Shown here in pieces: positions 1,719 through 27,292 of a DNA stretch of 64,000 nucleotides. Every line of letters begins with the position of its first letter. Within the stretch, counting starts at the first letter, position 1. Source of the DNA: a virus; IMG/VR virus record IMGVR_UViG_3300007513_002727, positions 1 to 64,000 of that record; one strand, 5' to 3'. The notes under the pieces were generated by a model. That model ran no database searches. It was not told where the DNA came from and saw only the letters and a program-made list of their open reading frames with translations. Both the position numbers and the translations under genes were made by a program.

Positions 1719-1719
1719 T

Positions 1720-6063: not shown

Positions 6064-6087
6064 TTCAACTTTCTCCTTTATTACTTA

Positions 6088-6115
6088 ATTTTAACATGGT
6101 TTGGTAATCTGTCAA
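6088..6115 (-). promoter_or_regulatory. sigma70-type early promoter
   Basis: TTGACA-16-TAAAAT with TGn. Confidence 0.75.
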
Positions 6116-6341: not shown

Positions 6342-6752
6342 TTAGTTTTTTTTGGTTTCACCATACATCCCCCTAGGACTAGGACTTGCATCTGGTCCTA
6401 GTAATTTCACCTGTTCAGCTCTAAATTTCAAAATATGACTTTCCCAATCATAAGTCCAATGTGGATTATCTCCTATTGGACAAGGTATCCATCCATCCTT
6501 TGCTGATTGTATTACTCTTCTTTCAAATGCTCCTTCGCCATTTATGCTATCCAACAATTCATTTTGATGACATAGATATAAATGAACATTCCAATTAAAG
6601 TCTGTTTCAACTTTACCTGTTCCATTTTGTCCTTTAATTAAATCATAATAGATTTTAGTATCTGGATCACCATTCCATTCTGCTTTGGCTGTATTACTAT
6701 AGACCATCATTGCTATAAATGTCACCGCCAATAGCCATTTTGTTTTATTCAT
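6342..6752 (-). CDS. hypothetical secreted protein
   Basis: Signal peptide ending AKA. Confidence 0.7.
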   Translation of the reverse strand: MNKTKWLLAVTFIAMMVYSNTAKAEWNGDPDTKIYYDLIKGQNGTGKVETDFNWNVHLYLCHQNELLDSINGEGAFERRVIQSAKDGWIPCPIGDNPHWTYDWESHILKFRAEQVKLLGPDASPSPRGMYGETKKN

Positions 6753-6890
6753 CTTTCTTTTTTCCTATTCTCTTCGCATATCCAATTATTAATTGGACGA
6801 AGTCTTCTAACTTGCCATCGTTTTTCATTAACAAGTAAATTCCATATCCTAACAAAGGTGGCATCACGAATAAAATAAAGGCGTCCATCA

Positions 6891-7043
6891 TTACTTACTA
6901 ACCACCTCTTTGATATATTTTCTACTCGCTTTTTTATATTTTTTGATTATTTTTTGACAATCTCTAATCAACACTAAAGAATAGATTGATGAGAACATAA
7001 TAACCAATAACATCACAAATGAAATTATTAATTCTTTTTCCAT
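6891..7043 (-). CDS. small membrane protein
   Basis: GGAGG SD before MEKELII; one TM segment. Confidence 0.55.
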   Translation of the reverse strand: MEKELIISFVMLLVIMFSSIYSLVLIRDCQKIIKKYKKASRKYIKEVVSK

Positions 7044-7225
7044 TAGTTTTCCTCCGCTTGTTTCATTATTGTTAAAATTCCAAAAAATAATCCTATGGCT
7101 GTGAATACTACAAAACCAATCCAATTATCGTTTATTGGAATTCCATGATGTCCACCTTCTATACAACCTACGGCAAATATCATTGATACAAAGAATATAA
7201 TTGGATAAATTATTTTCATTACCAT
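7043..7225 (-). CDS. small two-TM membrane protein
   Basis: Two hydrophobic segments; GGGAG SD. Confidence 0.6.
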   Translation of the reverse strand: MVMKIIYPIIFFVSMIFAVGCIEGGHHGIPINDNWIGFVVFTAIGLFFGILTIMKQAEEN

Positions 7226-7434
7226 AATCTCCCTTTACCTATTGACATACTATTTTCATCTTCAATAGGTTTAGTTTCATAATCAATTATTGCCAATTTG
7301 GTTTCATAATCAATTAATTGATTAAGATTATCAATAGCATTATCTTTATTGCCATTTTCAATATCTTCTTTGATTGATGTTAGGATATCAACTTTATTTG
7401 TGAATCCATTTATTTCTAATATTGGTTTTGACAT
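7219..7434 (-). CDS. hypothetical protein
   Basis: 71 aa with an internal IDYETK duplication. Confidence 0.6.
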   Translation of the reverse strand: MSKPILEINGFTNKVDILTSIKEDIENGNKDNAIDNLNQLIDYETKLAIIDYETKPIEDENSMSIGKGRLW

Positions 7435-7757
7435 TACTTGCCTTCCTTTGATTCTGCTTCTAAATTTAAAGCAATATCAATATCTGATTCTTCTTCATCT
7501 GTGAAAACAGGTGCTTCTGCATCTGCTGGAACAAAGTCAAAAGCGAATTCATCTCCAACGGCATACATATTCACGCCACCTTCTGGATTGATATTCTCCT
7601 TATAAAATGTTCTGATTTCTTTATGAACAAAGTCACAATCACTTGGCTTATCTAATACCAAATACATTGTACCATTCGTCATTTGTATTCTTTGAACTAT
7701 GCCAGATAATTCTGCTCTAACAAAGCCTTCTAATTGTTTTTCTATATTTTTTTGCAT
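7434..7757 (-). CDS. hypothetical early protein
   Basis: GGAGTTGAA SD after the promoter at 7783-7810. Confidence 0.75.
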   Translation of the reverse strand: MQKNIEKQLEGFVRAELSGIVQRIQMTNGTMYLVLDKPSDCDFVHKEIRTFYKENINPEGGVNMYAVGDEFAFDFVPADAEAPVFTDEEESDIDIALNLEAESKEGK

Positions 7758-7782
7758 ATTATTTCAACTCCTTATATATTTC

Positions 7783-7810
7783 ATTATAACATGGATGGTA
7801 ATACGGTCAA
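7783..7810 (-). promoter_or_regulatory. sigma70-type early promoter
   Basis: TTGACC-16-TATAAT; nearly identical to the promoters at 13548 and 15070. Confidence 0.8.
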
Positions 7811-7844
7811 CCTCAAATAAGCCGCATAATCATTGACTTTTTGC

Positions 7845-8051
7845 CTAATTATAATGCCCAATTGTCAACTTTTTGATAGAATCTTCCACTTCAAGAAGTC
7901 TATCTTCAACATCAGCAATCTTTTCTGCATTTTTCTTATCAAAGTATTTGAAATATGAAAGGTGATCAAGCTCTTGCTCTAGCATAATCTTTTGGCCCTC
8001 CAATTCTCTTATTCTATCCTTTGTATCCTGCGTCATTAATTTAATAGTCAT
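7845..8051 (-). CDS. small coiled-coil protein
   Basis: Heptad-like 68-aa ORF. Confidence 0.6.
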   Translation of the reverse strand: MTIKLMTQDTKDRIRELEGQKIMLEQELDHLSYFKYFDKKNAEKIADVEDRLLEVEDSIKKLTIGHYN

Positions 8052-8301
8052 AATTTATCTCTTCTACTCCTTCCATCTCGTCCTCATCTTCCCATCCGTC
8101 GGAATCGTTGTCATAAATTTTTCCGCTTCTGGCTCCACATCTTGAACACTTATCTTCTTTTTCAGTCATTGGACCGTGTTCACAACTGTCACACCACCAG
8201 TCATCGGCATGGTTTTTTTCTTCTTCCAAGTCCACATCACTTAAAATCTTATCCCATTCGTCTATCATTACCACATCCTTTCTATCTTTGGTATATTCCA
8301 T
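8041..8301 (-). CDS. acidic zinc-ribbon protein
   Basis: CDSC...CSRC motifs. Confidence 0.65.
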   Translation of the reverse strand: MEYTKDRKDVVMIDEWDKILSDVDLEEEKNHADDWWCDSCEHGPMTEKEDKCSRCGARSGKIYDNDSDGWEDEDEMEGVEEINYDY

Positions 8302-8507
8302 AAAGCATAACCAAGTCTATCTTCGTTATCTACTAGGTATCTAACTGCTTCTGTCTGTTCATTTTCTATACTCAATCCTACAAAGTTATCTATGAACCCT
8401 ACTTCTTTATCTTTAAAGAACACTGAACCAGTCTCTGGCTTTTTAGGAATAGTCCAACCGTCTTTTCTTAATTCGTTTTCCTGTTTATCGTTTAACCAAA
8501 TATCCAT
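8268..8507 (-). CDS. hypothetical protein
   Basis: ORF coupled to the ligase stop codon. Confidence 0.6.
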   Translation of the reverse strand: MDIWLNDKQENELRKDGWTIPKKPETGSVFFKDKEVGFIDNFVGLSIENEQTEAVRYLVDNEDRLGYALWNIPKIERMW

Positions 8508-9796
8508 TATAATTTCTCTCCTTTTTCAAAACCTCTAAATCTTAAAAATCTAGGAAATCTTAAACTCCATTCATTTTTAGCATTTTGATTCTGTGTTATT
8601 GCATCTGCTCTAACTTCTACAACTTGCCCAACTAATTTCTTTCTGGCTGACCAATATGTTTCTCTATCTGTATCACTTAATCCAGACCCTACATTGGTTC
8701 TAATCCACTTGCCGTCGTCTTTACCTTCAACAATAAGTGCTCCAAGTTTATCTGCATTTCTTCCTGTGCCTTCTTCTACTCCTATAACTGTTAAAGATAC
8801 TTCTATAAATGGTTTAACCTTTAACCATAATGTAGATCTTTTACATTCATAAACACCATTGATTGGTTTAACCATTATACCTTCAAAGCCTTTATCAATA
8901 CACAATTTATTATAGTCTGCGAATTGCTTCTGTCCATCTTCATCACTTAAATTCATTTTCACATACTCAACCAAATTAATGTTTGGTCCATAATTGTAAT
9001 CTTCTAATAATTGTTTTCGTTTTGTAATTGATAAACCACATTCTCCTGCTTTAAAATCTTCTAATGGTAGACAATCAAACAGATTCAATACGGCATCGTC
9101 TGTCTTTGCTCCACCTTTTCTGTGTATCTCTCTCATCAATGTTTGGAAGTCATCACTCATTACTTCACCATCAAACACCATTGACTCAGACATTTGGTCT
9201 AACATTTCATCAAATTGTTGAAGTATTTTAGGAAAGTTTGACAATTCTTTACCGTTCCTACTGAACATTTTAACTTCATCTTTATCTACATCACATATAA
9301 CCACAACTCTAACGCCATCTAACTTTGGTTCTACCATTACATCACCAACCATTTTCTTTTCGTGTTTCGCTGAATCTGTGGCTAACATACATTCAAACAC
9401 AGGAACCTGCATTGTTGAAAACTTATTGATTGTCTTATGTGTGACTCCACATCTTAAATCTTTTATTAAAATTCTTCTATACCAATCGTTCCATTCTTCC
9501 ATTTTAGATCTATTACATAAATCTTCAATCTTATCTCTCATTGAATTACCTGTAAGCCATCTTTCTTCTAATTTTTTTAGAGTGTCTAAAAATTCTGCTT
9601 CAGGTATGCCAGGTCCATCTTTTTTAGCAACTGGAACCTTTTGAACTCCAAATGTTCTAAATCCATCTAACGCCACACACACACCATCAAAGAATCTTAT
9701 GTTATCTGCGTCGCTCTCTCGCTTAATAATGGCCTCTTTTTTCAATCGGCTGTTATCAGCTTCTAATTCTTGTATTATCTTCCAAGGTTTCATCAT
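8507..9796 (-). CDS. lig: ATP-dependent DNA ligase
   Basis: Motif I EPKLDGVR, FDGE, EGIMVK, WLKVK, VGSG, SLRFPRF. Confidence 0.95.
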   Translation of the reverse strand: MMKPWKIIQELEADNSRLKKEAIIKRESDADNIRFFDGVCVALDGFRTFGVQKVPVAKKDGPGIPEAEFLDTLKKLEERWLTGNSMRDKIEDLCNRSKMEEWNDWYRRILIKDLRCGVTHKTINKFSTMQVPVFECMLATDSAKHEKKMVGDVMVEPKLDGVRVVVICDVDKDEVKMFSRNGKELSNFPKILQQFDEMLDQMSESMVFDGEVMSDDFQTLMREIHRKGGAKTDDAVLNLFDCLPLEDFKAGECGLSITKRKQLLEDYNYGPNINLVEYVKMNLSDEDGQKQFADYNKLCIDKGFEGIMVKPINGVYECKRSTLWLKVKPFIEVSLTVIGVEEGTGRNADKLGALIVEGKDDGKWIRTNVGSGLSDTDRETYWSARKKLVGQVVEVRADAITQNQNAKNEWSLRFPRFLRFRGFEKGEKL

Positions 9797-10005
9797 ACTT
9801 CTACTATCTCCACTTCAGTTTCTTTTGGTTCCATTATTCTTTTAAAAAACTCCCAAAACCATTTTTCTGCTTCTTCATCTGTCATATTACAAATTTCTTC
9901 CTTTACAAAAGATTCACAATTTAATTTTGGTTCTTCTGCATTCGCAAGATTCCAAACAAATAGATAGATTATAAAAAATATTATTATTGGTTTTTTTAAT
10001 CGCAT
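9793..10005 (-). CDS. small secreted protein
   Basis: Signal peptide ending ANA. Confidence 0.55.
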   Translation of the reverse strand: MRLKKPIIIFFIIYLFVWNLANAEEPKLNCESFVKEEICNMTDEEAEKWFWEFFKRIMEPKETEVEIVEV

Positions 10006-10586
10006 ATCATAAACCGATGGTTTCCTATTATTGCCGTTTCAATATAATATCCTGCCCAACTTGGATTGGCAATGTGGGGGTTATAATAAAATGTCGCTCC
10101 ATCTGTTGGGTCCATACTATAATCATCGTTCATTACGAATAAAGCGACATGGATTGAATCTCTCCATGCTGTCATATTTTCTGGAATTATAGTTCCATCT
10201 TTATAAGTCACCCAAAGCATATCTCTATGACCATCACACCACCAACTGAATTGGCATCTGTTTTTAATTGGATAATATTTTCTTTCACTTTTATCTAATG
10301 TTGGGTCTTTTTTTGTTTTCCAACTTTCCCTAACTGGTCCTTCATGTACTACTTCACAAACCGTATTAGGCCATCTTTTATCTTCAATTCTGTTCTGTAC
10401 GACATGAGCAACGGCAATCTTACCTATCATTGATTCGTGCCTTGCTTCAAAATATATATTTTGAGCCATACAATATAATTCATCTATATTCTGTGGAGTT
10501 CCTGTTTCAACTTCATATGACAATGCAAGGGAGGCCATAACCGCCCTTGCCGTCTGCATAACTGTTTCTAAAGAACCAGTGACCAT
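9996..10586 (-). CDS. cell wall hydrolase (SleB/Hydrolase_2 family)
   Basis: CMAQNIYFEAR, VAHVVQNR, CQFSW, DPTDGATFYY, IGNHRF. Confidence 0.9.
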   Translation of the reverse strand: MVTGSLETVMQTARAVMASLALSYEVETGTPQNIDELYCMAQNIYFEARHESMIGKIAVAHVVQNRIEDKRWPNTVCEVVHEGPVRESWKTKKDPTLDKSERKYYPIKNRCQFSWWCDGHRDMLWVTYKDGTIIPENMTAWRDSIHVALFVMNDDYSMDPTDGATFYYNPHIANPSWAGYYIETAIIGNHRFMICD

Positions 10587-10970
10587 TTAGTCTGCTCTAC
10601 TCTGCATATAACAATCAATACCATATTTTTCTAAAGCATCTGCGAAAGCATTACAGCCTTCTTCTTTGATGTCCATTGATTGAGTATGTCCATATCTGTG
10701 ACCTTTAGGCATTAGATCATAATAAGATACTCTCCAACCGCCTCCGTAGCCATTAGAACCAATATCCATTTCTTTTAGAAATTTAACCAATCTGCCTCTT
10801 GCTGGACGAATAACTATATTCGCGAATCCGCAATAAAGTGGTTCTCCGTGTTTCGCCACATATTCATCAACAGCCTTTAAACAAGCCTTTTTGGCATTGG
10901 TCCACATATCATAAGGACTAACACCTTCTGCATTAAATTTAAGTAGGTCTTTTGTTTCTGTTTTTAACAT
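10587..10970 (-). CDS. conserved hypothetical phage protein
   Basis: Start MLKTET after a GGAGTTGAA SD; CGFA...QSMDIKE...SRAD pattern. Confidence 0.75.
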   Translation of the reverse strand: MLKTETKDLLKFNAEGVSPYDMWTNAKKACLKAVDEYVAKHGEPLYCGFANIVIRPARGRLVKFLKEMDIGSNGYGGGWRVSYYDLMPKGHRYGHTQSMDIKEEGCNAFADALEKYGIDCYMQSRAD

Positions 10971-10994
10971 ATATTCAACTCCTTTTATAGTTTT

Positions 10995-11022
10995 AATATA
11001 ACATGGCATTTCATACAGTCAA
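10995..11022 (-). promoter_or_regulatory. sigma70-type early promoter of the hydrolase-ligase block
   Basis: TTGACT-16-TATATT with TGn. Confidence 0.75.
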
Positions 11023-11032
11023 CCGCCTAAAA

Positions 11033-11079
11033 CCACTATATCTTGTGTCGACTCTTTTTCTTGGCACTATATCTAGTGC
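11033..11079. promoter_or_regulatory. tandem NrdR-box-like palindromes
   Basis: CCACTATATCTTGTGT (11033) and GCACTATATCTAGTGC (11064), starts 31 bp apart, directly upstream of the -35 at 11017-11022. Confidence 0.7.
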
Positions 11080-11245
11080 CATTCAATTTTTGGTATATTT
11101 CTACCGCTTTATTTTCAGCAACGAAACCATTGGGTGCCGTCACATAAATCATATCTTTTTCCTTCTGTTTTTGATCACGAAAAACAGGTTGGGCATTTGG
11201 AAATCCATATTCCAAATCAGCGATGTCTATTTTAAATTTAGGCAA
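11036..11245 (-). CDS. hypothetical protein
   Basis: 69-aa ORF with a TTG start. Confidence 0.5.
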   Translation of the reverse strand: MPKFKIDIADLEYGFPNAQPVFRDQKQKEKDMIYVTAPNGFVAENKAVEIYQKLNGTRYSAKKKSRHKI

Positions 11246-11353
11246 TTTGTATGAATCCTATTGCCCATAAAAAAACCATCACAGGTCCTATTGTCCAAGC
11301 ACCAAACCACATAGCATCTAAAAATGATATTCCTATTGATTTTATCTTTGTCA

Positions 11354-11671
11354 TCAATCTAATAACACCATATATTCTTTTGGATAGTATTTTTGAAACC
11401 AAGCAATACCTTTCCTAACGGTTTCCCATTTAGGGTCATCACCATTATTTGGGTCTGCCAAATATTCTGCTCCTTTAATACAATCATAGACAGCAACCGC
11501 ATCTGGTTCCAACATAACCTTCTCACCTGAGAAAGGATTTTGAATTTCTTCTGGTTTGTCTAAGACTTCACATTCAAACGGTAATGGTCTTTTCTTTTCA
11601 TTACCATGTCCAACTTCATCTGAAGATTGTGAACCTCCATACATTAATGTCACTCCTGCATCTTTACTCAC
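11354..11671 (-). CDS. hypothetical phage protein
   Basis: NPFSGE...AVYDCIKG...YMVLLD pattern. Confidence 0.7.
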   Translation of the reverse strand: MSKDAGVTLMYGGSQSSDEVGHGNEKKRPLPFECEVLDKPEEIQNPFSGEKVMLEPDAVAVYDCIKGAEYLADPNNGDDPKWETVRKGIAWFQKYYPKEYMVLLD

Positions 11672-11903
11672 TATATTTCCTCTCTTCCTCTTCTATTCTA
11701 TAATTGGCCTCACCGTCCGGTGTTCTCCAAATGTTCAATATCTTAACACCTTTATCTTTGAAGTCCTTATAGAATTCTTTTAATACTTTATGGAATGGAT
11801 ATTGGAAATTGGCTTCGACAACCGTATATCCTCGAGTCATATCCTCATCTTTTAGATAGTCACCCTTCTCCTTTAAGAATCTATATCTGATATGAACTGA
11901 CAC
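11664..11903 (-). CDS. hypothetical protein
   Basis: Coupled ORF. Confidence 0.6.
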   Translation of the reverse strand: MSVHIRYRFLKEKGDYLKDEDMTRGYTVVEANFQYPFHKVLKEFYKDFKDKGVKILNIWRTPDGEANYRIEEEERKYSE

Positions 11904-12442
11904 TAGGCCGCCTTCCTTTTCTTCATTTGATCTAAAGTTCTTTCTAAGATGTCTATGTGATCTTTAATAGCATCTTCTTCTAATGGCTTGAACTCTGTGT
12001 CAATTACTTCCTTGCCATCTTCTGTGTATCTGCTTTCAACATAGAACCAACTGAACTTTGGTTTGCCCCAATAGTTCTTCTCACCAGCATCTTTCATCAG
12101 ATATACATATTGTTCACCTGAGTGGAAACCGTTTTTGATATAGTCTGCTTCGTCTTTGTAGACTCTGTATCCTGTACCTTTCTCACCTCGGTCTCTGCCA
12201 TAGTAGACATTTTGAACTTCATACATAGGATTTTCTCTATCATCAAAGTCTACCTTGTCTCCTATGATGTAATGCCATTTAGATGAGTCACCTAATTTAA
12301 TCGCTTCAGTGACTTTCTTTTTGTCTTCCCAATGCTCACAAAGGTTATATCCAAGTCCTCCTGGATAACCGTCCCAATGTTGATATGATGCTATGATCCT
12401 ACCACTCTTTTGTTTTATTCCTATTCTTGCTCTAGTCGCCAT
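11903..12442 (-). CDS. conserved phage early protein (MxTRxxIG...YxHWDGYP type)
   Basis: MATRARIG, YQHWDGYP, YYGRDRGE; C-terminal KAA. Confidence 0.8.
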   Translation of the reverse strand: MATRARIGIKQKSGRIIASYQHWDGYPGGLGYNLCEHWEDKKKVTEAIKLGDSSKWHYIIGDKVDFDDRENPMYEVQNVYYGRDRGEKGTGYRVYKDEADYIKNGFHSGEQYVYLMKDAGEKNYWGKPKFSWFYVESRYTEDGKEVIDTEFKPLEEDAIKDHIDILERTLDQMKKRKAA

Positions 12443-12831
12443 TATGCTCCTTCCATAAATTGTGATGTCAATTGTTCTCTTGGGGGTGCCTTGACATCTT
12501 TTAAATAATTTAAAGACGCCCTTGCTTCTTTCAAAGCATCATGAACGATACTTTGATGATCTTCGTCAAATATTTCTTTTTTAATTCCATCATAATCTTT
12601 ATATAAAAGTCCACCCATTGATGCATCGCCTAGTTCAACTCCTTTACAGAATACTCTCGCCGTTGCATATACCCAAACCTTCTTGCCATATGCGATATCT
12701 TGTTTAAGATGAAACATATTAAGTTTCGACGCATCATCATCAAATATTTCTTCTACATCCATTTCTTCTGGAGCGACATAACCAAACACTCTAAAAGGTC
12801 CGTAGTCTTTCTCCCATATTCTTTCTGACAT
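12442..12831 (-). CDS. hypothetical protein
   Basis: Coupled ORF with GGAGG SD. Confidence 0.7.
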   Translation of the reverse strand: MSERIWEKDYGPFRVFGYVAPEEMDVEEIFDDDASKLNMFHLKQDIAYGKKVWVYATARVFCKGVELGDASMGGLLYKDYDGIKKEIFDEDHQSIVHDALKEARASLNYLKDVKAPPREQLTSQFMEGA

Positions 12832-13136
12832 TATTTTCCTCCCGTTGCCTTGTTAAAATTCTTATTAATTAAATGTTGATCCCTAGCATCTGTAACCACG
12901 AAAGGTTTTTTGCCTTCTTCTCTTTCTGATTTACTTGGATACTCCCAAATCTTTGGGTCTTTAATAACTTTCATTCCGTGAATTTCTAAATATTCAATCA
13001 TATTCTCCACAGCCGAAAACCTATCTGTTCTACAAGGTAAACCTGTACCGTTCGCATCACAGCCTAGGTCTTGTTGGATGTCACCACCCAACTTAACCAA
13101 TCTGTCTATATCTTTTTCTGTTAAGGTATCTGACAT
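12831..13136 (-). CDS. hypothetical protein
   Basis: Coupled ORF with GGAGG SD. Confidence 0.7.
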   Translation of the reverse strand: MSDTLTEKDIDRLVKLGGDIQQDLGCDANGTGLPCRTDRFSAVENMIEYLEIHGMKVIKDPKIWEYPSKSEREEGKKPFVVTDARDQHLINKNFNKATGGK

Positions 13137-13513
13137 TAAGCAACCTCCTTAAATTCTTCAACAGCCGGTGTCCAATCAATACCATTGTCTGAATATTGCC
13201 AAGTACCTTTCATGAATAAGAATAAATGACCAACATTTTTTCTCATCTCTTCTTTATTCCAAGACAAATTTGATTCAATAACATCACCAAATCCATCAAC
13301 ATACCAATAATCATCTTTTTTGAAAGTTGGCATTAATGTAGGTGAGTCAACAAGTTTTTGAGCCATTTCCTTATCATTATATTGACTCATTAAAACTCCC
13401 GTCAATGCTTCTGGCGTAGTTTTCCAACCTGTTTCAACGGCAACGACATTTTGACTATTGTCAATATATCCAACCATTATTCCGTGTTTATTTTTATAGT
13501 CTATTTTTTGCAT
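13136..13513 (-). CDS. hypothetical early protein
   Basis: Start MQKIDY after GGAGTTGAA. Confidence 0.7.
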   Translation of the reverse strand: MQKIDYKNKHGIMVGYIDNSQNVVAVETGWKTTPEALTGVLMSQYNDKEMAQKLVDSPTLMPTFKKDDYWYVDGFGDVIESNLSWNKEEMRKNVGHLFLFMKGTWQYSDNGIDWTPAVEEFKEVA

Positions 13514-13547
13514 TTTATTTTCAACTCCTTCTTTCAACATATAATTC

Positions 13548-13575
13548 AGTATAACATGGATGGTAATACCGTCAA
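13548..13575 (-). promoter_or_regulatory. sigma70-type early promoter
   Basis: TTGACG-16-TATACT. Confidence 0.8.
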
Positions 13576-13610
13576 CCACCTATAACCTTCCATTTTATGC
13601 GACTTTTTAA

Positions 13611-13886
13611 TCATCTGTGATATAAGGCAAACCTATCTGCGAACTTTTTATGACAAAAAGCCGACGGTCTTGAATAAATTTGAACTCTTGAATCGTTTGA
13701 ATAAATTGAACCACCCCTATACTTTCTTCGAAGTGGCACTATCTTCGCAAGTCTATTTGTCATTTTATGATTTTCAATTGTATTTGGTATATCCTTTGCA
13801 AAGGCATATTCATATCCGGGTGCCTTATATTGGTTCAACCAATTCTGCATTTCTAAAGGTAAACAGAATTTGACAAGTCTATCCAT
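13611..13886 (-). CDS. hypothetical protein
   Basis: Coupled ORF. Confidence 0.6.
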   Translation of the reverse strand: MDRLVKFCLPLEMQNWLNQYKAPGYEYAFAKDIPNTIENHKMTNRLAKIVPLRRKYRGGSIYSNDSRVQIYSRPSAFCHKKFADRFALYHR

Positions 13887-14131
13887 TACTTTCCAAAATA
13901 AGGTTGATTTAAAAATTTTCCAAAATAGTCATCGTCTCTCTTACCTTTTGCTGGCCTATGACCTAAATAATTGTGACCTTCTCCAACTACTTGAGGACCA
14001 TGATCACAACTTATAACCCAACCTGCAGGTCCGTATAATACAGCCTTACCGGAATGAGTTTGACCTTGTTTATTTTGATAAAAAACTTTATCACCTTTTC
14101 TTATCTCGTCATAACATTCATCAGTCCACAT
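13886..14131 (-). CDS. small SH3-like hypothetical protein
   Basis: IRKGDKVFY...GKAV..GPAGWV. Confidence 0.6.
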   Translation of the reverse strand: MWTDECYDEIRKGDKVFYQNKQGQTHSGKAVLYGPAGWVISCDHGPQVVGEGHNYLGHRPAKGKRDDDYFGKFLNQPYFGK

Positions 14132-14768
14132 TTACTTTTTCTCCCTTTGAGTAATCTATGATTTCTTTGTTATCACCTATTCTTTCTGCTTCTAATTGAG
14201 CTTCATACTCCGCCATTGATTCTGTGATACCATACAAGTCATCTAACTCTTTACCTTCCGAAGTATTCCAAAATTTATCTGTAGACCCTTTAGGTACCGT
14301 ATCAGATATATTCCAACATTGGTCGTCTCCATTATCCCATATTCCCATAAAGTCACAGCCACCTTCATAATAGGTTGTTCTGATACTGACATTAGAATTA
14401 TTGGCTAGGAACTCTTCATAAGCACCAATTGGTGGTGCCCAAGCTGAATCAAATCCAAATGATATTTCTGATTCATCATCATTAATATAGTTTCTATCAA
14501 CGCCATAGAACTCATGAATGTCCCATTTCGTAGACCAGTTTTCTACCGCCCAGTCATACCAATTTGAATATCCATACTTCTTCATCATTGCTTTATTTTT
14601 AGAACCGTCCGCCGTCGTCTCTATTAAGCCTTCTGGCATTGGATGAAAATAATGTAAAAGACCATCTGCTTGTTTTTCGTATTTTTCGTTCTTAACAATC
14701 TTTTCAATCTTATCAATTATCTTATTAGGTCCTGTGATAGTGATATTATTATTGCACCAATTAGGCAT
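14121..14768 (-). CDS. DUF1281/Api92-like ferredoxin-fold protein
   Basis: MPNWCNN start, WYDWAVENWSTKWD, FDSAWAPP, YYEGGCDFMG. Confidence 0.8.
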   Translation of the reverse strand: MPNWCNNNITITGPNKIIDKIEKIVKNEKYEKQADGLLHYFHPMPEGLIETTADGSKNKAMMKKYGYSNWYDWAVENWSTKWDIHEFYGVDRNYINDDESEISFGFDSAWAPPIGAYEEFLANNSNVSIRTTYYEGGCDFMGIWDNGDDQCWNISDTVPKGSTDKFWNTSEGKELDDLYGITESMAEYEAQLEAERIGDNKEIIDYSKGEKVNVD

Positions 14769-15045
14769 TAATAGCCTCCTTGGATAAATGTGATCCTGGA
14801 ACATTCCATCTAGTTCCACCTAATGTTCTAACCAAAACATATTTGATTTTGATCTTCTCAACCTTCGCTTCTAAAAGTGTATTTCTACGACCTCTAAAAA
14901 ATACCGTATCACCCACCTTGAATGAATGAGCATTTATAGTATGAAGTTGGTTTCTTCTCAACTTAATAGCATCTACAACTGAATCCACTTCTGAACTCTT
15001 TAGGCTGTAAATCCCTTTTATTATTGTTTCTAGTTTTTTGTTCAT
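14761..15045 (-). CDS. KOW/SH3-like hypothetical protein
   Basis: FKVGDTVFF...KVEKIKIKYVLV...WNVPGSHL. Confidence 0.7.
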   Translation of the reverse strand: MNKKLETIIKGIYSLKSSEVDSVVDAIKLRRNQLHTINAHSFKVGDTVFFRGRRNTLLEAKVEKIKIKYVLVRTLGGTRWNVPGSHLSKEAINA

Positions 15046-15069
15046 ATATTCAACTCTCCTTTATTATTC

Positions 15070-15097
15070 ATTATAACATGGATGGTAATACCGTCAA
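15070..15097 (-). promoter_or_regulatory. sigma70-type early promoter
   Basis: TTGACG-16-TATAAT. Confidence 0.8.
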
Positions 15098-15102
15098 CCT
15101 CA

Positions 15103-15345
15103 CTATTCTACCCATATTTCTTGACTTTTTAAAGCATCTTCAATCGTTGCTCTATTAGATTTGGTATAAACATAGAAGATTGAAGAATTCATTTCTTCTC
15201 CATCTACTACGGCATCTATACCTGCATATTTTAAAGCATTTTGAATTGACGGTACGATACTTCTATCTTCGTCTAAATCCCAATCGCCTAAATCTTCTAC
15301 GGCGAAAGTATGTTTATGACTTTCAACTTGTCCTTCATAACTCAT
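15103..15345 (-). CDS. hypothetical acidic protein
   Basis: GGAGG SD. Confidence 0.65.
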   Translation of the reverse strand: MSYEGQVESHKHTFAVEDLGDWDLDEDRSIVPSIQNALKYAGIDAVVDGEEMNSSIFYVYTKSNRATIEDALKSQEIWVE

Positions 15346-15551
15346 TATTTTATTCCTCCTATTTCTAAAATTGTATCTTTAATAATTTGATGTCTTTCTT
15401 CATGTACCGATGCTCCCCAAGTACCTTCTTCGGTCTTCTCTATAACTTTCCCTGTCAATACCGCACCTTGATATATTTTTGATGCGGTACTGACCTCTTC
15501 TACTGGTGTAAGGAGCATGACTAATCCTGTTATCAATCCTGTGACATTCAT
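15345..15551 (-). CDS. hypothetical protein
   Basis: Coupled ORF. Confidence 0.55.
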   Translation of the reverse strand: MNVTGLITGLVMLLTPVEEVSTASKIYQGAVLTGKVIEKTEEGTWGASVHEERHQIIKDTILEIGGIK

Positions 15552-15672
15552 ATCAATTTCACCAATATAATAATTTGTAGAACTATAATCACAACTGGAA
15601 GGATTGTTCTAACCAATTCCATAGTGTGGTTATATTCATCTAGTTTTCTTTCTAAATAATTTCTTTTATTTT

Positions 15673-15942
15673 TCATCTAAACTTGCTTTCTAAATTTCCT
15701 AAATGGATATCTACCCAATCTTCTAATTCATCTGCGAACCCTTTATACTCTTCAAAAGTATATCCTAATTCTTCTGCTTTCTTTTTAAATCTATGAGCAA
15801 CTGATTTTGGTCCCATCAAAGCATCGTCACCATTCCATGAACATACACCTTCTGTGAAGTTTCCTAATTCATATTGCTCTATGAAATTATCATAAAGTTC
15901 TTCTAAACTTTGTTTGATTTTTTCTTTAACTATTTCTACCAT
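15673..15942 (-). CDS. hypothetical acidic protein
   Basis: GGGAG SD. Confidence 0.65.
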   Translation of the reverse strand: MVEIVKEKIKQSLEELYDNFIEQYELGNFTEGVCSWNGDDALMGPKSVAHRFKKKAEELGYTFEEYKGFADELEDWVDIHLGNLESKFR

Positions 15943-16250
15943 AATCTCCCTTGGCTAATCGACATTCCATTTTCATCATAATTCATATATTCGTCCCAAA
16001 ATTCTTCTGTCTCTTTTTCTCTTAACAGATTTGAATGTAATTGGTTCTCTTCATTTATTAAATCTAATGTTCTAAAGTCTGCCAACATATCTTCAAAAGG
16101 TATTTGGTCGTTGCTATTCCATCTAACAACTCCTTCTTTATCAATATAGGCACCTGTGTGACCATTAGTACCATTAAAATTATCTCTAATTTGGTCTTCG
16201 TTGTATCCACTACCGTTTCTATTATTGTATCCTATCATTGAATTTGACAT
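15936..16250 (-). CDS. hypothetical protein
   Basis: GVVRWNSNDQIPFEDML motif; coupled ORF. Confidence 0.7.
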   Translation of the reverse strand: MSNSMIGYNNRNGSGYNEDQIRDNFNGTNGHTGAYIDKEGVVRWNSNDQIPFEDMLADFRTLDLINEENQLHSNLLREKETEEFWDEYMNYDENGMSISQGRLW

Positions 16251-16504
16251 TAGTTTTTCTCCTTACCTGAGTACCAAGGTGATTTATAAGTGTGGTCTCC
16301 GCCAACGGCTTCAACTTCTCTCCAAGGACCTTTGATACTGAAACTATATGGATTGACCATTGCTCCAGGATTTTTAAACATTCTTTCTAAAATTCTTCTG
16401 CATTTAGACAAAGTAAACGGTCCACCATAAATTGTATAATCTTCTAAACCGTCTTCGCCCATTTCCATTTCTGTGATATAAAATTGTTTTCTATTTTTTA
16501 GCAT
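16250..16504 (-). CDS. hypothetical protein, first gene of the leftward early arm
   Basis: Start MLKNRK after GGAGTTGAA. Confidence 0.65.
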   Translation of the reverse strand: MLKNRKQFYITEMEMGEDGLEDYTIYGGPFTLSKCRRILERMFKNPGAMVNPYSFSIKGPWREVEAVGGDHTYKSPWYSGKEKN

Positions 16505-16527
16505 TTCAACTCCTTCTTTCATACTTC

Positions 16528-16555
16528 AGTATAACATAGGTCTAGTACCCGTCAA
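16528..16555 (-). promoter_or_regulatory. sigma70-type early promoter
   Basis: TTGACG-16-TATACT. Confidence 0.8.
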
Positions 16556-16645
16556 CCTGGTAAAAGAAAATAGGTGAAAATTTTGGTATATATAAAGCCG
16601 AGCAGAAAAGCCAGTAAAATAGCGACTAATTCATCAGATTGAATG

Positions 16646-16739
16646 GCACTAGATATAGTGTTGGTCTTATTTGAAGACACAAGATGTAGTGCCACACGAT
16701 TTCGTACCGGTTGACAAGATCAACTACAAGATATAGTCT
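16646..16739. promoter_or_regulatory. three NrdR-box-like palindromes
   Basis: GCACTAGATATAGTGT (16646), ACACAAGATGTAGTGC (16677, +31), CTACAAGATATAGTCT (16724); TTGACA at 16711. Confidence 0.7.
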
Positions 16740-16744
16740 TATCA

Positions 16745-16838
16745 AGTGTAATTGATGAGCTGTCATTACACTGAAATGATGATGACATATCAGCAATTCA
16801 TGTTATAATATATTATAACCAAAAAAAAGGAGTTGAAT
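16745..16838 (+). repeat. palindrome-promoter-RBS cassette, copy 1
   Basis: AGTGTAATTGATGAGCTGTCATTACACT, then ATGACA-16-TATAAT, then AAGGAGTTGAAT. Confidence 0.85.
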
Positions 16839-16840
16839 CA

Positions 16841-17035
16841 ATGCCAATCGTGTCTAAGCAATTTGTAGAGTTCTTAAATGCCCAAGTCAAATATAAGTCG
16901 TACTCTGTTCATCACAAGTATCATCGTCCCGCTTATATCAAATTTAAAACTTATGCTCAAGCCAAATCTTATTGCATAAAGCATAATTTAGATCATAGTA
17001 GTAGTTGGGTTCTAACTACTGTCAATCATTGTTAG
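16841..17035 (+). CDS. small basic hypothetical protein
   Basis: Own promoter cassette and AAGGAG SD. Confidence 0.7.
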   Translation: MPIVSKQFVEFLNAQVKYKSYSVHHKYHRPAYIKFKTYAQAKSYCIKHNLDHSSSWVLTTVNHC

Positions 17036-17061
17036 TAATCTAAACTATCAAATCTAATTTT

Positions 17062-17152
17062 CAGTGTAATTGATGAGCTATCATTACACTGGAATCATAA
17101 ATGACATATCAGCAATTCATGTTATAATATATTATACAGAAAGGAGTTGAAT
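17062..17152 (+). repeat. palindrome-promoter-RBS cassette, copy 2
   Basis: CAGTGTAATTGATGAGCTATCATTACACTG, then ATGACA-16-TATAAT, then AAGGAGTTGAAT. Confidence 0.85.
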
Positions 17153-17420
17153 GAATAAAAATGATAAAATGCTTTATCAAAAAGCATATAAGCAATTAGA
17201 AGCAAGAATCGTATCACATCTGCCATTGACTGACATGAGTCAAGCTCATATTAATACAAATTTGAATTTAAAACACTATCTTCAAACTTGTCAAAGTCAT
17301 ATTAAATATTTTATTAATGATTTGACGAAAGAGCTTAAAAGAGATACTGATCTTTCTAAAGATGATCTTAAAAAAATCGTTAAGCAATTGACGATAGATT
17401 ACATCAATACGATTACATAG
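17151..17420 (+). CDS. hypothetical helical protein
   Basis: Own promoter cassette and SD. Confidence 0.75.
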   Translation: MNKNDKMLYQKAYKQLEARIVSHLPLTDMSQAHINTNLNLKHYLQTCQSHIKYFINDLTKELKRDTDLSKDDLKKIVKQLTIDYINTIT

Positions 17421-17430
17421 AAGCGATATG

Positions 17431-17456
17431 ATAATGGGTCAGCGATGGCCCATTAT
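17431..17456. terminator. hairpin between convergent genes
   Basis: ATAATGGGTCA-GCGA-TGGCCCATTAT. Confidence 0.65.
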
Positions 17457-17479
17457 CTAAATTACCAAATATACCTAAA

Positions 17480-17668
17480 TTACCAAATTGAATCTTCTTT
17501 TGGTTTCTTATCTTTGTCAAATTGTTTTGAGTTTGGTGTGTTGTTGGCCAAGTCGTCTAAAAATTTTTCTTCTTCGATTTGATTTAATCTTCTCTCAACC
17601 GGAAACCTAATCACATTTTTAAATTGAGTAAATTTGATTTGTCTCTTCAACCAATCAATATATTTCAT
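17480..17668 (-). CDS. hypothetical protein
   Basis: 62 aa, contains NVIRFP. Confidence 0.6.
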   Translation of the reverse strand: MKYIDWLKRQIKFTQFKNVIRFPVERRLNQIEEEKFLDDLANNTPNSKQFDKDKKPKEDSIW

Positions 17669-17673
17669 ATTGA

Positions 17674-18168
17674 TTATTTTGGTTTAACAGTTTTTGATTT
17701 TAATGGTGGACGAGCACCTGTTTTCGTTCCGCCGAGTTTCGGTGCTGAACCTTTTGTTTTTTTAATCTGAACACCTTTTAATCTTTTAGCACCTGCTCCA
17801 GATCTTTTTGTGATACCTAATTTCTTTCCTGCCGTTCTGGCTTTGATTGATCTTCTCTTTCTAATCTTTGCAGACCTTTGCGGGTCAGTTTTTTGAAAAC
17901 AGGTTGATGGTTTGGCAACGATTCTGCCTTTTCTTGGACCGCTCGTACATCTAAAACCTGCCTTTGGAGCACCACCTTTCTTTCTTCTAAAAATTTGGCT
18001 CACTCCTTCTGAAATTGCAGAATGATCTGACATTTCTAAAATATTACCATCAACCATTTCTGGTACTATATCTTGTGTCAACCGAGTTGATTGACCACTA
18101 GATATTGTGGCACTAGATGTAGTGCCTTCTGAATTTTTTGGTACTACGATGAATTCTTTGATCTTCAT
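17674..18168 (-). CDS. basic putative head-internal or virion protein
   Basis: MKIKE leader, FRCTSGPRKGRIVA core, K/R-rich tail; TAAATA-N5-ATG. Confidence 0.7.
   Translation of the reverse strand: MKIKEFIVVPKNSEGTTSSATISSGQSTRLTQDIVPEMVDGNILEMSDHSAISEGVSQIFRRKKGGAPKAGFRCTSGPRKGRIVAKPSTCFQKTDPQRSAKIRKRRSIKARTAGKKLGITKRSGAGAKRLKGVQIKKTKGSAPKLGGTKTGARPPLKSKTVKPK
18063..18125. promoter_or_regulatory. three NrdR-box-like palindromes inside a CDS
   Basis: GTACTATATCTTGTGT (18063), CCACTAGATATTGTGG (18095, +32), GCACTAGATGTAGTGC (18110). Confidence 0.6.
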
Positions 18169-18197
18169 ATCGGTATTTACCTAGACAACTCTGGATA

Positions 18198-18270
18198 GAG
18201 AACTGACGAGAACTGACGAGAACTGACGAGAACTAATAGAACTAATAGAACTAAAGCAATACGAACTGAT
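18198..18270. repeat. iteron-like tandem repeat (AGAACT core, 9-10 bp period)
   Basis: GAGAACTGAC x3, GAGAACTAAT, AGAACTAAT, AGAACTAAAG, then GAACTGA. Confidence 0.9.
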
Positions 18271-18348
18271 AGTAGTAACAATATATTACAGGGTGCTACA
18301 TTTTAACAAGATCAACTTCATTGTTGTAAACGGTTAAATACAAGCACA

Positions 18349-18585
18349 ATGAAGATATTAGAAGTAATAGGAACAAAAGAAAACATAGGACCAGCACCGT
18401 CAGGTGTATGCTCTAAACCTACATCATCTTTACCAGCATCTTGGGTATCTTCTTGTAAGTCACAAGGCAAAAGAAAACGTACCGGGAACCGTGTAGCCAA
18501 GCTAGGTGGTAAGACTAAAAAGGTTGCAGGTAAACGAATCAAAGGTAAGAAATACGGTGGACCTTTGCCAGATTATTCAGAATAA
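18349..18585 (+). CDS. small basic putative head-internal protein
   Basis: MKILE leader, K/R-rich, YGGPLPDY; TAAATA-N8-ATG. Confidence 0.7.
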   Translation: MKILEVIGTKENIGPAPSGVCSKPTSSLPASWVSSCKSQGKRKRTGNRVAKLGGKTKKVAGKRIKGKKYGGPLPDYSE

Positions 18586-18604
18586 CAAGCTAAACCAAAG
18601 ACCT

Positions 18605-18626
18605 AATAGCGAGCCAATAGCGAGCC
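18605..18626. repeat. 11-bp direct tandem repeat
   Basis: AATAGCGAGCC x2. Confidence 0.85.
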
Positions 18627-18638
18627 ATAACTAGGTAT

Positions 18639-19775
18639 ATGCAAATAGGCTTTATAGGATTAGGTAAATTGGGTATGCCATGTGCAGAAGCAGTTTCAGA
18701 CAAAGGATTTAATGTGCTTGGATATGATATACTGCCTAAAACCAGTACAAAGATAGATATAAAAGATTCAATACAAGAAGTTATAGAACAATCGGATATT
18801 GTATTTGTTGCAACTCCTACTCCACATGAAGAAGGATACGATGGAAGAAATCCTACAAGTCATCTGCCACCTAAAGACTTTAACTATGATTCAGTAAAAG
18901 AAGTTTTAAAAGAATGCAACAAGTATGTTAAGAATGAACAAACACTTACATTAATATCAACAGTACTACCCGGAACAATAAGAAGAGAACTTGCTCCTAT
19001 TGTTACAAATACAAGATTGATTTATAATCCTTATCTAATTGCTATGGGTAGTGTAGGTTGGGATATGATTAATCCTGAAATGATTATTATAGGCACAATG
19101 AAAGGCAACCTCGTTACGGCCAATAGAGCAAAACATCTTTTGCATTTCTACGGAAGGATATGTGATAACAATCCTAGAATAGAATTTGGCACTTGGGAAG
19201 AAGCAGAAGCAATTAAAATATTCTACAACACTTTCATTAGCAACAAACTTGCATTAGTTAATATGATACAAGACGTTGCTGAACGTTTGGGCAACATGGA
19301 TGTTGATATAGTGACCAAAGCACTGGCAAAAAGCACTCAAAGAATTAACAGTCCTGCCTACATGAAAGCAGGTATGGGAGATGGTGGTGCTTGTCATCCG
19401 CGTGATAATATAGCACTTCGTTGGTTAGCAAAAGATATAGGATTAGGATATGACCTATTTCAAAGTATAATGACTGCACGTGAAAAACAAGCAGAAAATA
19501 TGGCAAAAGCAATATTAAAATATGGTAAAAACATATACTTTACATCAGACTCTTACAAACCTAACACAAATTTAATAGATGGATCATACTCTTTACTCGT
19601 ACAATATTACGTTAAAAAACATGGTGGAACACTAGTAAATGGTTTTGATACTCCCGTAGAAGTTATTGTAAGGGTGCATGAAACAAATAATATAACAGCA
19701 GATAATAAAACTGTTATATTTGATCCATGGAGAACATATCCAAAAGCAAATAATGTAGTTTATTATGGTAAATAA
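18639..19775 (+). CDS. ugd: UDP-glucose/GDP-mannose dehydrogenase family protein
   Basis: GFIGLGKLG Rossmann fold, ATPTP, STVLPGT, YNP, KIFYN, GDGGACHPRD catalytic Cys. Confidence 0.9.
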   Translation: MQIGFIGLGKLGMPCAEAVSDKGFNVLGYDILPKTSTKIDIKDSIQEVIEQSDIVFVATPTPHEEGYDGRNPTSHLPPKDFNYDSVKEVLKECNKYVKNEQTLTLISTVLPGTIRRELAPIVTNTRLIYNPYLIAMGSVGWDMINPEMIIIGTMKGNLVTANRAKHLLHFYGRICDNNPRIEFGTWEEAEAIKIFYNTFISNKLALVNMIQDVAERLGNMDVDIVTKALAKSTQRINSPAYMKAGMGDGGACHPRDNIALRWLAKDIGLGYDLFQSIMTAREKQAENMAKAILKYGKNIYFTSDSYKPNTNLIDGSYSLLVQYYVKKHGGTLVNGFDTPVEVIVRVHETNNITADNKTVIFDPWRTYPKANNVVYYGK

Positions 19776-24244: not shown

Positions 24245-25681
24245 ATGGAACTTGTCATACTAATGGCAGGTATTGTTTATGGCTTGATCATTGGCCTAAT
24301 ACCAGCCGCAGGAGCAACAACAGGACTAATCACACTATTTGGATTCATGCCCTACTTTGTAGGCGACCCGTACTTGGGTGTAATCTTTTGTGTAGCAGTT
24401 GTAGCCTCATCCACAACCGGTGATTCTTTTAGTGGTGTGCTGTTAGGCATACCTGGAGCCAACTCTGCGGCCGCAACAATGGTAGATGGGTTTCCTATGG
24501 CCAAGAATGGAGAAGCAACCAGAGCCTTGTCAGCGGCAATAACATCATCAACCTTTAATGGATTGCTCTTTGGATCACTTACATTTTTGTTCTTACCTTG
24601 GTACACGCAAGTTGTTATGTATATGGGCATACCCGAACTGTGGGCATTAGTATTATTAGCATTTGTCACTGTAGGTTTTGTTTCCACTAGGAAATATGTT
24701 AGAAGTACACTAGCTATAGTGCTAGGAATAACAATAGGACTAGTTGGTGTTGATGTAAACAATGTACCTCGTTTCACAATGGGTTGGAGATACCTTGAAG
24801 ACAGTGTACAGATACTGCCTTTTGTTGCAGGACTGTTTGCTATACCAGAACTTTGGAATGGTTGGTTCAATAGGAAAAAAACAACAACAATAAAAGCAGA
24901 ACAAGGCAGTTGGCAAGATCTAAAACAAGGAATCAAAGACACTATTAGATGTTGGAAGGATAGTATTAGAGGAGGAGCCATAGGTTCGTTTATAGGACTA
25001 CTACCTGGACTAGGTGGTGCAATGGCTGACTGGTTAGCATACGGTTCTACTGTGGCCGCTAACCCAAAAGAAAAATTTGGAGAAGGAAATGTAAGAGGCA
25101 TAGTAGGAGCAGAAGGAGCCAACAATGCACAAAAAGCCTCTTCATTTATTCCAACAGTTTTATTTGGTATTCCAGGTGCACCCTTTGCCGCGATACTGAT
25201 GGGACTATTTTTATACCTAGGTATTGACTTAGGATCTCCAGATACATTTTACGATAAAAAATTATTTGACAGCATGACTTTTGCTTTCCTTATAGGAACA
25301 ATGATAACTGCTGTTATTTGTTATGGACTGGCATATTTCGCAGGGTGGGTAACACGTATTCCATATGTGTATTACTTTCCTTTCATACTTGCTGTTATTG
25401 TTTGGGCAACCTTACAGTACACAGGCGGGTGGGAAGACCTTGCAGTACTTGTAGCATTCTCTATATTAGGATTGCTATGTAAAAAATTCCAAGTTAGCAG
25501 GCCAGCACTGTTAATTGGGTACCTGTTAAGTGACAGGATATACAATCTCACTTACCAATTAACATCACTCCATACGGTAAATGATTTAATTACAAGACCA
25601 CTCTTTATTTCTATAATGATTTGTGTTATACTTTTACTATATTGGGGAATAACAAAAAGGAGTCGATTAGACTATGCTTAA
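24245..25681 (+). CDS. tctA: tripartite tricarboxylate transporter permease TctA
   Basis: Multi-TM; GVLLGIPG..SAAATMVDGFPMA, IGLLPGLGG, AEGANNA, LFGIPG. Confidence 0.92.
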   Translation: MELVILMAGIVYGLIIGLIPAAGATTGLITLFGFMPYFVGDPYLGVIFCVAVVASSTTGDSFSGVLLGIPGANSAAATMVDGFPMAKNGEATRALSAAITSSTFNGLLFGSLTFLFLPWYTQVVMYMGIPELWALVLLAFVTVGFVSTRKYVRSTLAIVLGITIGLVGVDVNNVPRFTMGWRYLEDSVQILPFVAGLFAIPELWNGWFNRKKTTTIKAEQGSWQDLKQGIKDTIRCWKDSIRGGAIGSFIGLLPGLGGAMADWLAYGSTVAANPKEKFGEGNVRGIVGAEGANNAQKASSFIPTVLFGIPGAPFAAILMGLFLYLGIDLGSPDTFYDKKLFDSMTFAFLIGTMITAVICYGLAYFAGWVTRIPYVYYFPFILAVIVWATLQYTGGWEDLAVLVAFSILGLLCKKFQVSRPALLIGYLLSDRIYNLTYQLTSLHTVNDLITRPLFISIMICVILLLYWGITKRSRLDYA

Positions 25682-26720: not shown

Positions 26721-27292
26721 TGTATATTCTTTTCACAGGAGCACCAGGATCAAAATGGAGCAGTGTGGCCAAAAACATTTATAGGTCACCTGACATTGAT
26801 CAATCTGACAGCACCAGTGAAAGGACATACAAGCACGGAAAGGTAAACCATATGGGATCATACTTTGATCCTGGAATGGAATTTGAAAACACAAAAGAAA
26901 ATTGGGATAAACCTTTCTCAGGCACAGGCAAAAGAATTATTAAATCACACACGTTTGCACACGAACTAGACGAACTAAAAACATTAGGTTATCCGATAGT
27001 AATGGTTTATAGGAATGATATTGAATCTTATAAGTGGTGGATTGATGCTGGTGGATTTGATATTACCTATCCTAATTACAGTTATTTTGAGTCTTTAGAA
27101 AAAATGTGGACTCATATACAAAACGAAAACAACGACATAATGCAGTTTATTAAAGACAATCAAAACAGAGTTATTTGTCCTGTAGACAATGTGGATCTTT
27201 GTAGAGCACTCAGTATTAGTTTTCCTGACGCCAACGGCAGGATACATAATTACGAACACAACGATATTAAAGTTTACTTGTACAAACAATGA
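26720..27292 (+). CDS. P-loop sulfotransferase/kinase-like protein
   Basis: N-terminal FTGAPGSKWS, IIKSH, MVYR. Confidence 0.55.
   Translation: MYILFTGAPGSKWSSVAKNIYRSPDIDQSDSTSERTYKHGKVNHMGSYFDPGMEFENTKENWDKPFSGTGKRIIKSHTFAHELDELKTLGYPIVMVYRNDIESYKWWIDAGGFDITYPNYSYFESLEKMWTHIQNENNDIMQFIKDNQNRVICPVDNVDLCRALSISFPDANGRIHNYEHNDIKVYLYKQ

Follow-up and report, generated by a model that had tools for sequence, protein, structure and literature searches.

Paired NrdR-type boxes at early promoters and inside a gene of a marine phage clade as candidate operators for host NrdR

We analyzed the first 64,000 nucleotides (hereafter the window) of the IMG/VR record IMGVR_UViG_3300007513_002727, a 92,942-bp sequence with 33% G+C from an uncultured marine phage, in which eight 16-bp boxes resembling the operators of the regulator NrdR were found at early promoters and within a small gene at the strand-switch hub. 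NrdR binds paired boxes as a tetramer in the presence of both dATP and ATP, and leaves the DNA with ATP only. Based on the sequence and spacing of the boxes, their phasing relative to promoters, their conservation throughout a clade of related viruses, and selection at the DNA level inside the gene, we consider it fairly probable (roughly 0.6) that they are cis-acting operators for the host NrdR, which would place a subset of the phage promoters under dATP/ATP-dependent repression. The clade would in this way probably tie some of its genes to the dATP/ATP state of the cell.

The boxes are distributed over the following three sites.

11033–11079 (no strand): canonical box pair, boxes 11033–11048 and 11064–11079 with a 15-nt linker
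16646–16739 (no strand): four-box array, boxes at 16646, 16677, 16692 (decayed) and 16724, with linkers of 15 and 16 nt
18063–18125 (no strand): three in-frame boxes, codons 15–35 of a 164-aa gene, 43–105 nt after its ATG

NrdR boxes have six highly conserved positions, namely C4, A6, A8, T9, T11, and G13 (Shahid et al., PMC13584703), and their linkers are constrained in length and free in sequence (PMC13584703). All six positions were present in each of the eight boxes (11033, 11064, 16646, 16677, 16724, 18063, 18095, and 18110), with two to four mismatches per box to the 16-mer consensus acaCwAtATaTwGtgt. The start-to-start spacing was 31 in 11033/11064 and 16646/16677 and 32 in 18063/18095, which corresponds to canonical linkers of 15 and 16 bp, respectively, with the box centers a whole number of helix turns apart; spacings of 47 (16677/16724 and 18063/18110) and 15 (18095/18110, which abut) were also observed. 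The decayed box at 16692 retains five of the six key positions and is separated from 16724 by a 16-nt linker, and the 16.7-kb array thus consists of two abutting canonical pairs. The 11033/11064 and 16646/16677 pairs were revealed to be inverted near-copies with a 23-nt perfect match. Even so, the linkers are fixed in length and not in sequence: the 15-nt linkers of these near-duplicates differ completely, and linkers vary among the relatives. At the level of sequence, the sites answer to the whole definition of an NrdR operator (the six-position 16-bp part-palindrome and a linker of 15–16 bp that is free in sequence) except for location, as they do not lie in the promoter region of an RNR (ribonucleotide reductase) operon. 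The sequence-only reading of this window had described the 11033/11064 pair and six boxes at the strand switch as NrdR-like, with recurrent spacings of 31/32 and 47 and a near-duplication between the two pairs, and all of these points were borne out. Its placing of the boxes at the hub stood only in part: they do cluster there, but those at 18063–18125 are not intergenic, lying inside the open reading frame (ORF) 17674–18168 (−).

To assess chance occurrence, a pair test was employed that uses only the published criteria, namely the six key positions and a start-to-start distance of 31 or 32, because the null distribution of a first position weight matrix (PWM) scan, obtained by first-order Markov simulation, was wide. 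Three canonical pairs were observed in the record, against a mean of 0.017 and a maximum of 1 in 300 dinucleotide-preserving shuffles. A PWM scan of the record at a threshold of at least 14 bits returned one further site only, at 24707. The additional site is probably due to chance or non-functional.

24707–24722 (no strand): lone box-like 16-mer inside ORF 24245–25681, with no partner at 31/32 bp

An RNA hairpin or terminator was also considered for the boxes and rejected: their non-key positions are not kept complementary (positions 5/12 in 27 of 69 boxes and 7/10 in 11 of 69), and the 31/32 spacing would be left unaccounted for.

The record contains about 14 strong promoters of the sigma70 type that share the consensus GGTTGAC-N14-TGTTATAAT; AAGGAGTTGAA and an ATG usually come next, and the copies are located at 676–16555 (−), at 29435–54638 (+), and at G000 64042–72075 (+). 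This family probably represents early promoters for the host RNA polymerase. Eight of them, as judged by pattern, are leftward promoters between 0.7 and 16.6 kb; among these, an adjacent box pair occurs at 11022 only and an upstream array, at a distance of about 90–106 nt, at 16555 only. The two promoters, the operon of the former, and a further candidate promoter are as follows.

10995–11022 (−): early sigma70-type promoter of the ligase operon, TTGACT-16-TATATT with TG
8507–10973 (−): operon of the boxed promoter 11022, four genes
10587–10973 (−): phrog_22149 protein, first gene of the ligase operon
9996–10586 (−): SleB-type cell wall hydrolase, ligase operon
between the SleB-type hydrolase and the ligase (−): 70-aa ORF, ligase operon
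8507–9796 (−): ATP-dependent DNA ligase, ligase operon
16528–16555 (−): first leftward early promoter, TTGACG-16-TATACT with TG, driving a run of small early genes
16711–16740 (+): possible rightward GGTTGACA promoter, its −10 overlapped by box 16724

The 11033–11079 pair ends 10 nt before the −35 element of promoter 11022, and the same order of elements was observed in the window and its relatives: box, 15–16 nt, box, short gap, GGTTGAC, N14, TGTTATAAT, ribosome-binding site, and ATG. Between the proximal box and TTGAC, the distance was 10 nt in nine cases, 11 nt in seven, and 20–21 nt in four (one of them determined by eye), with no case of 12–19 nt. These observations thus indicated that the operator keeps to a single helical face with respect to −35. 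Many of the promoter-linked sites are homologous by descent; the variants with an additional 10 nt differ in sequence.

A profile search with the 164-aa protein yielded 80 viral loci, comprising 52 close and 28 distant homologues (33–42% identity). The boxes were kept in all 52 of the close, marine viral contigs, with two to four boxes at +44, +59, +91, and +106 of the gene. PWM hits in these 52 loci numbered 0 in 379 kb upstream, 157 in the first 200 nt of the gene, and 72 in 178 kb downstream, versus five hits in 331 kb around the distant homologues, i.e., 4.0 versus 0.15 hits per 10 kb in sequences of similar composition. The distant homologues have neither the boxes in the gene nor a segment of 25–45 residues between the MKIxE start and the conserved core, indicating that the array is an in-frame insertion confined to one clade. 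Outside the gene, neighboring boxes of the 52 close relatives were spaced by 31 bp in 19 cases and 32 bp in six, and never by 29, 30, 33, or 34 bp; their key positions were kept in 133–138 of 138, a count that is partly circular as the sites had been selected by PWM. A box pair precedes the ligase operon in the same synteny in G001, G003, G004, G005, and L012, and arrays of two or three boxes occupy the place equivalent to 16646 in G001, G003, L040, L041, and L055. In G005, L013, and others, a second pair precedes the homologue of the gene at 13136–13579, the promoter of which is unboxed in the window. Distant phrog_22149 homologues (L029–L033) showed no boxes, and the boxes are thus specific to this clade; in one of the more distant relatives of the phrog_22149 gene, the promoter is present without boxes.

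The array at 18063–18125 is situated in the coding frame of the following gene.

17674–18168 (−): 164-aa basic protein of a virus-only family, N-terminus MKIKEFIV

Codon usage was analyzed in 17 distinct sequences, the proteins of which are 60–70% identical to that of the window. The entropy of third codon positions was 0.32 bit in the box codons and 1.09 bit elsewhere (Mann–Whitney p ~1e-7, which is indicative only as the sequences are related). The codons of Ser-Ser were nearly invariably TCT-AGT, whereas all six serine codons are in use in the rest of the gene, and ACA-CAA-GAT was fixed in nearly every sequence. Ile, Leu, and Val are exchanged via the first codon base, which coincides with the free box position 10, and the third base stays constant. 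Since synonymous sites are frozen and amino acids vary at box position 10, it is the DNA motif that is under selection, with the peptide as a consequence. A GGTTGAC within the gene (18078–18084) was considered as an internal promoter and rejected, as the relatives are without TTGAC.

The phage encodes a class Ia RNR of its own.

43479–47048 (+): class Ia RNR genes, nrdA 43479–45935 with an ATP-cone and nrdB 45951–47048

The 365-aa ORF at 45951–47048 was called nrdB from its adjacency to nrdA alone. No NrdR box was found upstream of nrdA/nrdB, the best PWM score in 42900–43480 being 3.75 bits, and the absence of a box at the phage nrdA, already remarked upon in the sequence-only reading, was thus confirmed. 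The region upstream of nrdA (43370–43410) contains tandem TATATAATA motifs in place of the early promoter type, and nrdAB therefore seems to belong to a different temporal class.

We propose that the host NrdR, present at the onset of infection, would bind the canonical pairs at chosen sigma70-type early promoters, i.e., that of the ligase operon and the first one of the leftward run of early genes, to which some relatives add one further early promoter. Bound at roughly −45 to −90, upstream of −35 and on one face of the helix, it would repress these promoters; true NrdR targets with multi-box arrays (three or four boxes) and with boxes wholly upstream of −35 are known. On the array of two to four boxes that was inserted in frame into the 5′ part of the gene for the small basic protein at the hub, NrdR would block transcription through that gene when dATP is sufficient. 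Expression of the boxed genes would follow the dATP/ATP state from DNA entry onward, and the unboxed nrdAB of the phage would escape NrdR control. The signal could be used in either of two directions, namely release of the promoters as replication drains dATP, or their shut-off once the phage RNR raises dATP. Of the three roles suggested in the sequence-only reading, nucleotide-dependent control of the first-expressed genes fits best, being supported by the helical phasing to −35 and by the tie to the ligase operon across relatives.

Several points weigh against this proposal. In E. coli and P. aeruginosa, paired boxes occur at RNR operons only, genome-wide, and a regulon of non-RNR genes is thus without cellular precedent. 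The boxes are centered near −53 and −85 and do not overlap the core promoter; repression from there is assumed, and activation or another effect is possible. The array upstream of promoter 16555 lies 64–90 nt from it, with unclear phasing. Base modification of the phage DNA, if present, could alter binding. As the window's own boxes served to build the PWM, logo-type statistics for the relatives carry some circularity, of which the six-position and spacing tests are free. Finally, the sole hint at a host points weakly to Verrucomicrobia or is a binning artefact. It comes from a homologous 10-kb contig (NHDJ01000124.1, L034), which holds the 164-aa gene, its boxes, and the early promoter and is binned in the marine metagenome-assembled genome (MAG) Verrucomicrobia bacterium TMED56. 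This MAG encodes NrdR; apart from the pair on the phage-like contig, it has no strict box pair, and no class I/II RNR large subunit was detectable in it. NrdR is found in 77% of bacterial genomes (PMC13584703).

Gating by the host NrdR may also be combined with titration in a two-way device, in which NrdR would first gate the promoters and the in-gene array, and about nine boxes per genome copy would then titrate NrdR, releasing phage genes according to copy number and derepressing the host RNR. Such a replication-coupled timer, possibly a widespread one, is a tentative extension that we hold to be rather unlikely as a whole. A pure decoy, as suggested in the sequence-only reading, is more doubtful: eight to nine high-quality boxes, multiplying with replication, would titrate scarce host NrdR, derepress the host RNR, and act as a copy-number timer, with effects on promoters being secondary. 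The boxes are indeed near-consensus, clustered, and absent at the phage nrdAB, one array lies inside a coding region without an obvious promoter to control, and titration would follow arithmetically from replication if NrdR binds. However, a decoy needs no fixed relation to promoters, whereas the proximal pairs end exactly 10–11 or 20–21 nt before −35 and stay at the same operon across relatives, and the whole set of boxes spans about 7 kb to one side of the hub, the 379 kb on its other side being free of them. The position of the proximal pairs relative to promoters was thus found not to be free, which a pure decoy leaves unexplained; titration as a side effect, or as the role of the in-gene array, is possible.

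The third suggestion of that reading, a phage protein of similar specificity, would make the boxes part of a phage-internal circuit, read by an NrdR homologue whose gene would lie in the ~60% of the genome that the record lacks, or by a convergent, unrelated factor. The record is ~39% complete as estimated by CheckV, a gene of an uncultured marine podovirus has been annotated as NrdR, and two Synechococcus phages match the Zn-ribbon half of NrdR. On the other hand, the NCBIfam NrdR model TIGR00244 matched neither the record nor those of 13 relatives at E ≤ 1, all of which are fragments (relatives 7–24% complete), and a one-step contig walk beyond the right end yielded two further contigs, likewise with no NrdR. 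Among 50,697 GenBank phage records, NrdR matches occurred in only 21, mostly resembling host fragments, and convergence on the universal sequence and spacing rules of NrdR would be hard to achieve. A phage-encoded reader, unsupported by these searches and kept as a rival, is therefore unlikely.

Replication control, in which NrdR bound beside iteron-like repeats would couple the firing of a phage origin to the dNTP supply, is quite improbable. The in-gene array lies ~75–190 nt from tandem repeats of 10–12 nt that were found in all relatives with differing sequence, and the region is a hub of divergent transcription. Nothing marks these repeats as an origin, however, and the operator sites at 11.0 and 16.7 kb are linked to promoters and far from the repeats; origin coupling, for which the nearby repeats are the sole ground, is speculative. 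The repeats of the window are located in the strand-switch gap.

18198–18250 (no strand): tandem 10-nt repeats in the strand-switch gap

In relatives (L003–L018, ~5870–5990), repeats of 10–12 nt occupy the same place and the unit differs among lineages; they could be iteron-like, marking a possible origin, or part of a fast-evolving 5′ leader.

An origin of the boxes by chance, from AT-rich composition, or as a by-product of TxSSx/TQDIV peptide repeats has a negligible probability. The in-gene boxes do code for short peptide repeats, but intergenic copies share their geometry, a non-key box position tolerates amino acid changes although synonymous sites are frozen, the shuffles yielded far fewer than the three pairs, and hits were scarce around distant homologues of similar composition.

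Phages use host transcription factors at their own promoters, for example at LexA- or CRP-type sites. Control by the host NrdR would resemble these cases in borrowing a host sensor and differ from them in that the sensor reads dATP/ATP. Compared with the operators of bacterial RNR operons (E. coli nrdAB, nrdHIEF, and nrdDG; S. coelicolor nrdAB and nrdRJ), the phage boxes are alike in the six positions and the free linker of 15–16 bp (PMC13584703, PMC12051234, PMC9110341), and their multi-box, upstream arrays are like those of L. monocytogenes nrdAB (four boxes) and S. pneumoniae nrdHEF (three boxes, upstream of −35) (PMC13584703, PMC12051234, PMC9110341). They differ in standing at a ligase-containing operon and small early genes with no RNR gene, in having one array in a coding frame, and in that abutting boxes are 15 bp apart, hence the recurrent 47-bp spacings. 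NrdR-type boxes at replication-related non-RNR genes have been described for topA in Pseudomonas and dnaA in Shewanella (10.1101/2025.03.28.645925), but those are single boxes, whereas the phage has full canonical pairs that are conserved and phase-locked to promoters. An nrdR mutant showed no differential topA expression, and most non-RNR boxes are suspected to be false positives (10.1101/2025.03.28.645925).

A literature search found no publication on NrdR boxes in phages. In IMG/VR, strict canonical pairs were detected in at least 116 viral contigs (29–69% G+C), compared with eight contigs for a half-turn off-phase control, the canonical pairs thus being at least 14-fold commoner. Among the 116 listed loci (L120–L243), one belongs to the present clade, and in one the fetched flank includes a large subunit of class I RNR, classes II and III being outside this search. 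The description of the boxes as an undescribed regulatory system, made in the sequence-only reading, was overstated, given that NrdR and its operator are already known; what appears to be new is the occurrence of putative NrdR operators in a phage, at non-RNR genes, and inside a gene. NrdR is regarded as RNR-specific, and yet this clade of abundant marine phages keeps putative paired operators under selection at non-RNR genes, even where they constrain a protein sequence. If NrdR binds them, the phages would read the host dATP/ATP directly to schedule their genes, which would add a layer to phage–host regulation and extend the NrdR regulon. The in-frame insertion is furthermore a clean natural case of dual coding, with a transcription-factor site and a peptide on the same bases. 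As NrdR proteins bind heterologous boxes, an in vitro test would be easy.

The phage itself appears to be a large one, distantly akin to T4-like pelagiphages and cyanomyoviruses. Given the completeness of the record, a full genome well in excess of 200 kb is probable. The NrdA is ~68% identical to those of cyanophages and a Pelagibacter phage, a conserved 406-aa protein shares 40% identity with its counterpart in HTVC008M and cyanomyoviruses, and the record also codes for DnaK, a permuted tmRNA, and an ATP-dependent DNA ligase. The same DNA is contained in marine or seawater metagenomes of 13 studies, and none of the sequencing runs listed with it was RNA. In GenBank phages, neither a close nor a distant DNA match to the box region was found, and an Rfam scan of 10000–19500 at E ≤ 1 gave no match. 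The phrog_22149 protein and the 164-aa protein matched only viral hypothetical clusters in the Atlas, the latter having no Pfam or PHROG match either.

The 164-aa protein may be compared with the T4 internal proteins IPI–IPIII (PMC8442874). It is likewise small and highly basic, particularly in its C-terminal half, its start MKIKEFIV (MKITEL or MKIYEI in relatives) resembles the N-terminal capsid targeting sequence MKTYQEFIAE of T4 over about eight residues, a late-promoter-like ATAAATAC motif precedes its gene, and the phage has marine T4-like phages as distant relatives. It differs in having no detectable sequence homology to these proteins, and its assignment as a T4-type internal head protein is only a lead.

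The strand-switch gap (18169–18348) comprises, besides the tandem repeats, a conserved element and ATAAATAC-type motifs before both divergent starts. The (T)TAAATAC motif, resembling T4 late promoters, occurs at 18169–18185 (−) and 18330–18348 (+) and is conserved in relatives; its position only 4–7 nt before both ATGs suggests very short or absent leaders. Many related contigs (L002, L004, L005, L011, L015, and others) stop no more than about 1 kb past the downstream side of the 164-aa gene, and assemblies seem to break at this repeat-rich hub.

The conserved elements GAATTAGTCGCTATTTTACT and GGCTTTATATATACC (16580–16640; 26830–26885 in the joined sequence of G001), which lie between the first early promoter and the 16646 array, may represent another promoter type. 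On the other side of the array, a cassette at 16745–17456 consists of two palindrome-plus-promoter units (16745–16820 and 17063–17140), each with a small rightward gene (ORFs of 64 and 89 aa) and each composed of a 28-nt palindrome (AGTGTAAT...ATTACACT) and an ATGACA-16-TGTTATAAT promoter. This block is missing in the close relative G001, the array of which directly follows a 62-aa gene, and is thus an insertion relative to G001. Searches of Pfam, PHROGs, and the Atlas gave no function for the 62-, 64-, and 89-aa proteins.

The permuted (two-piece) tmRNA gene was predicted at 50107–50474 by ARAGORN. The DnaK (Hsp70) gene is full-length (G000 72714–74603; L019:8714–10603), and its product shows ~66% identity to proteobacterial DnaK; DnaK homologues are known from huge phages such as the Lak phages.

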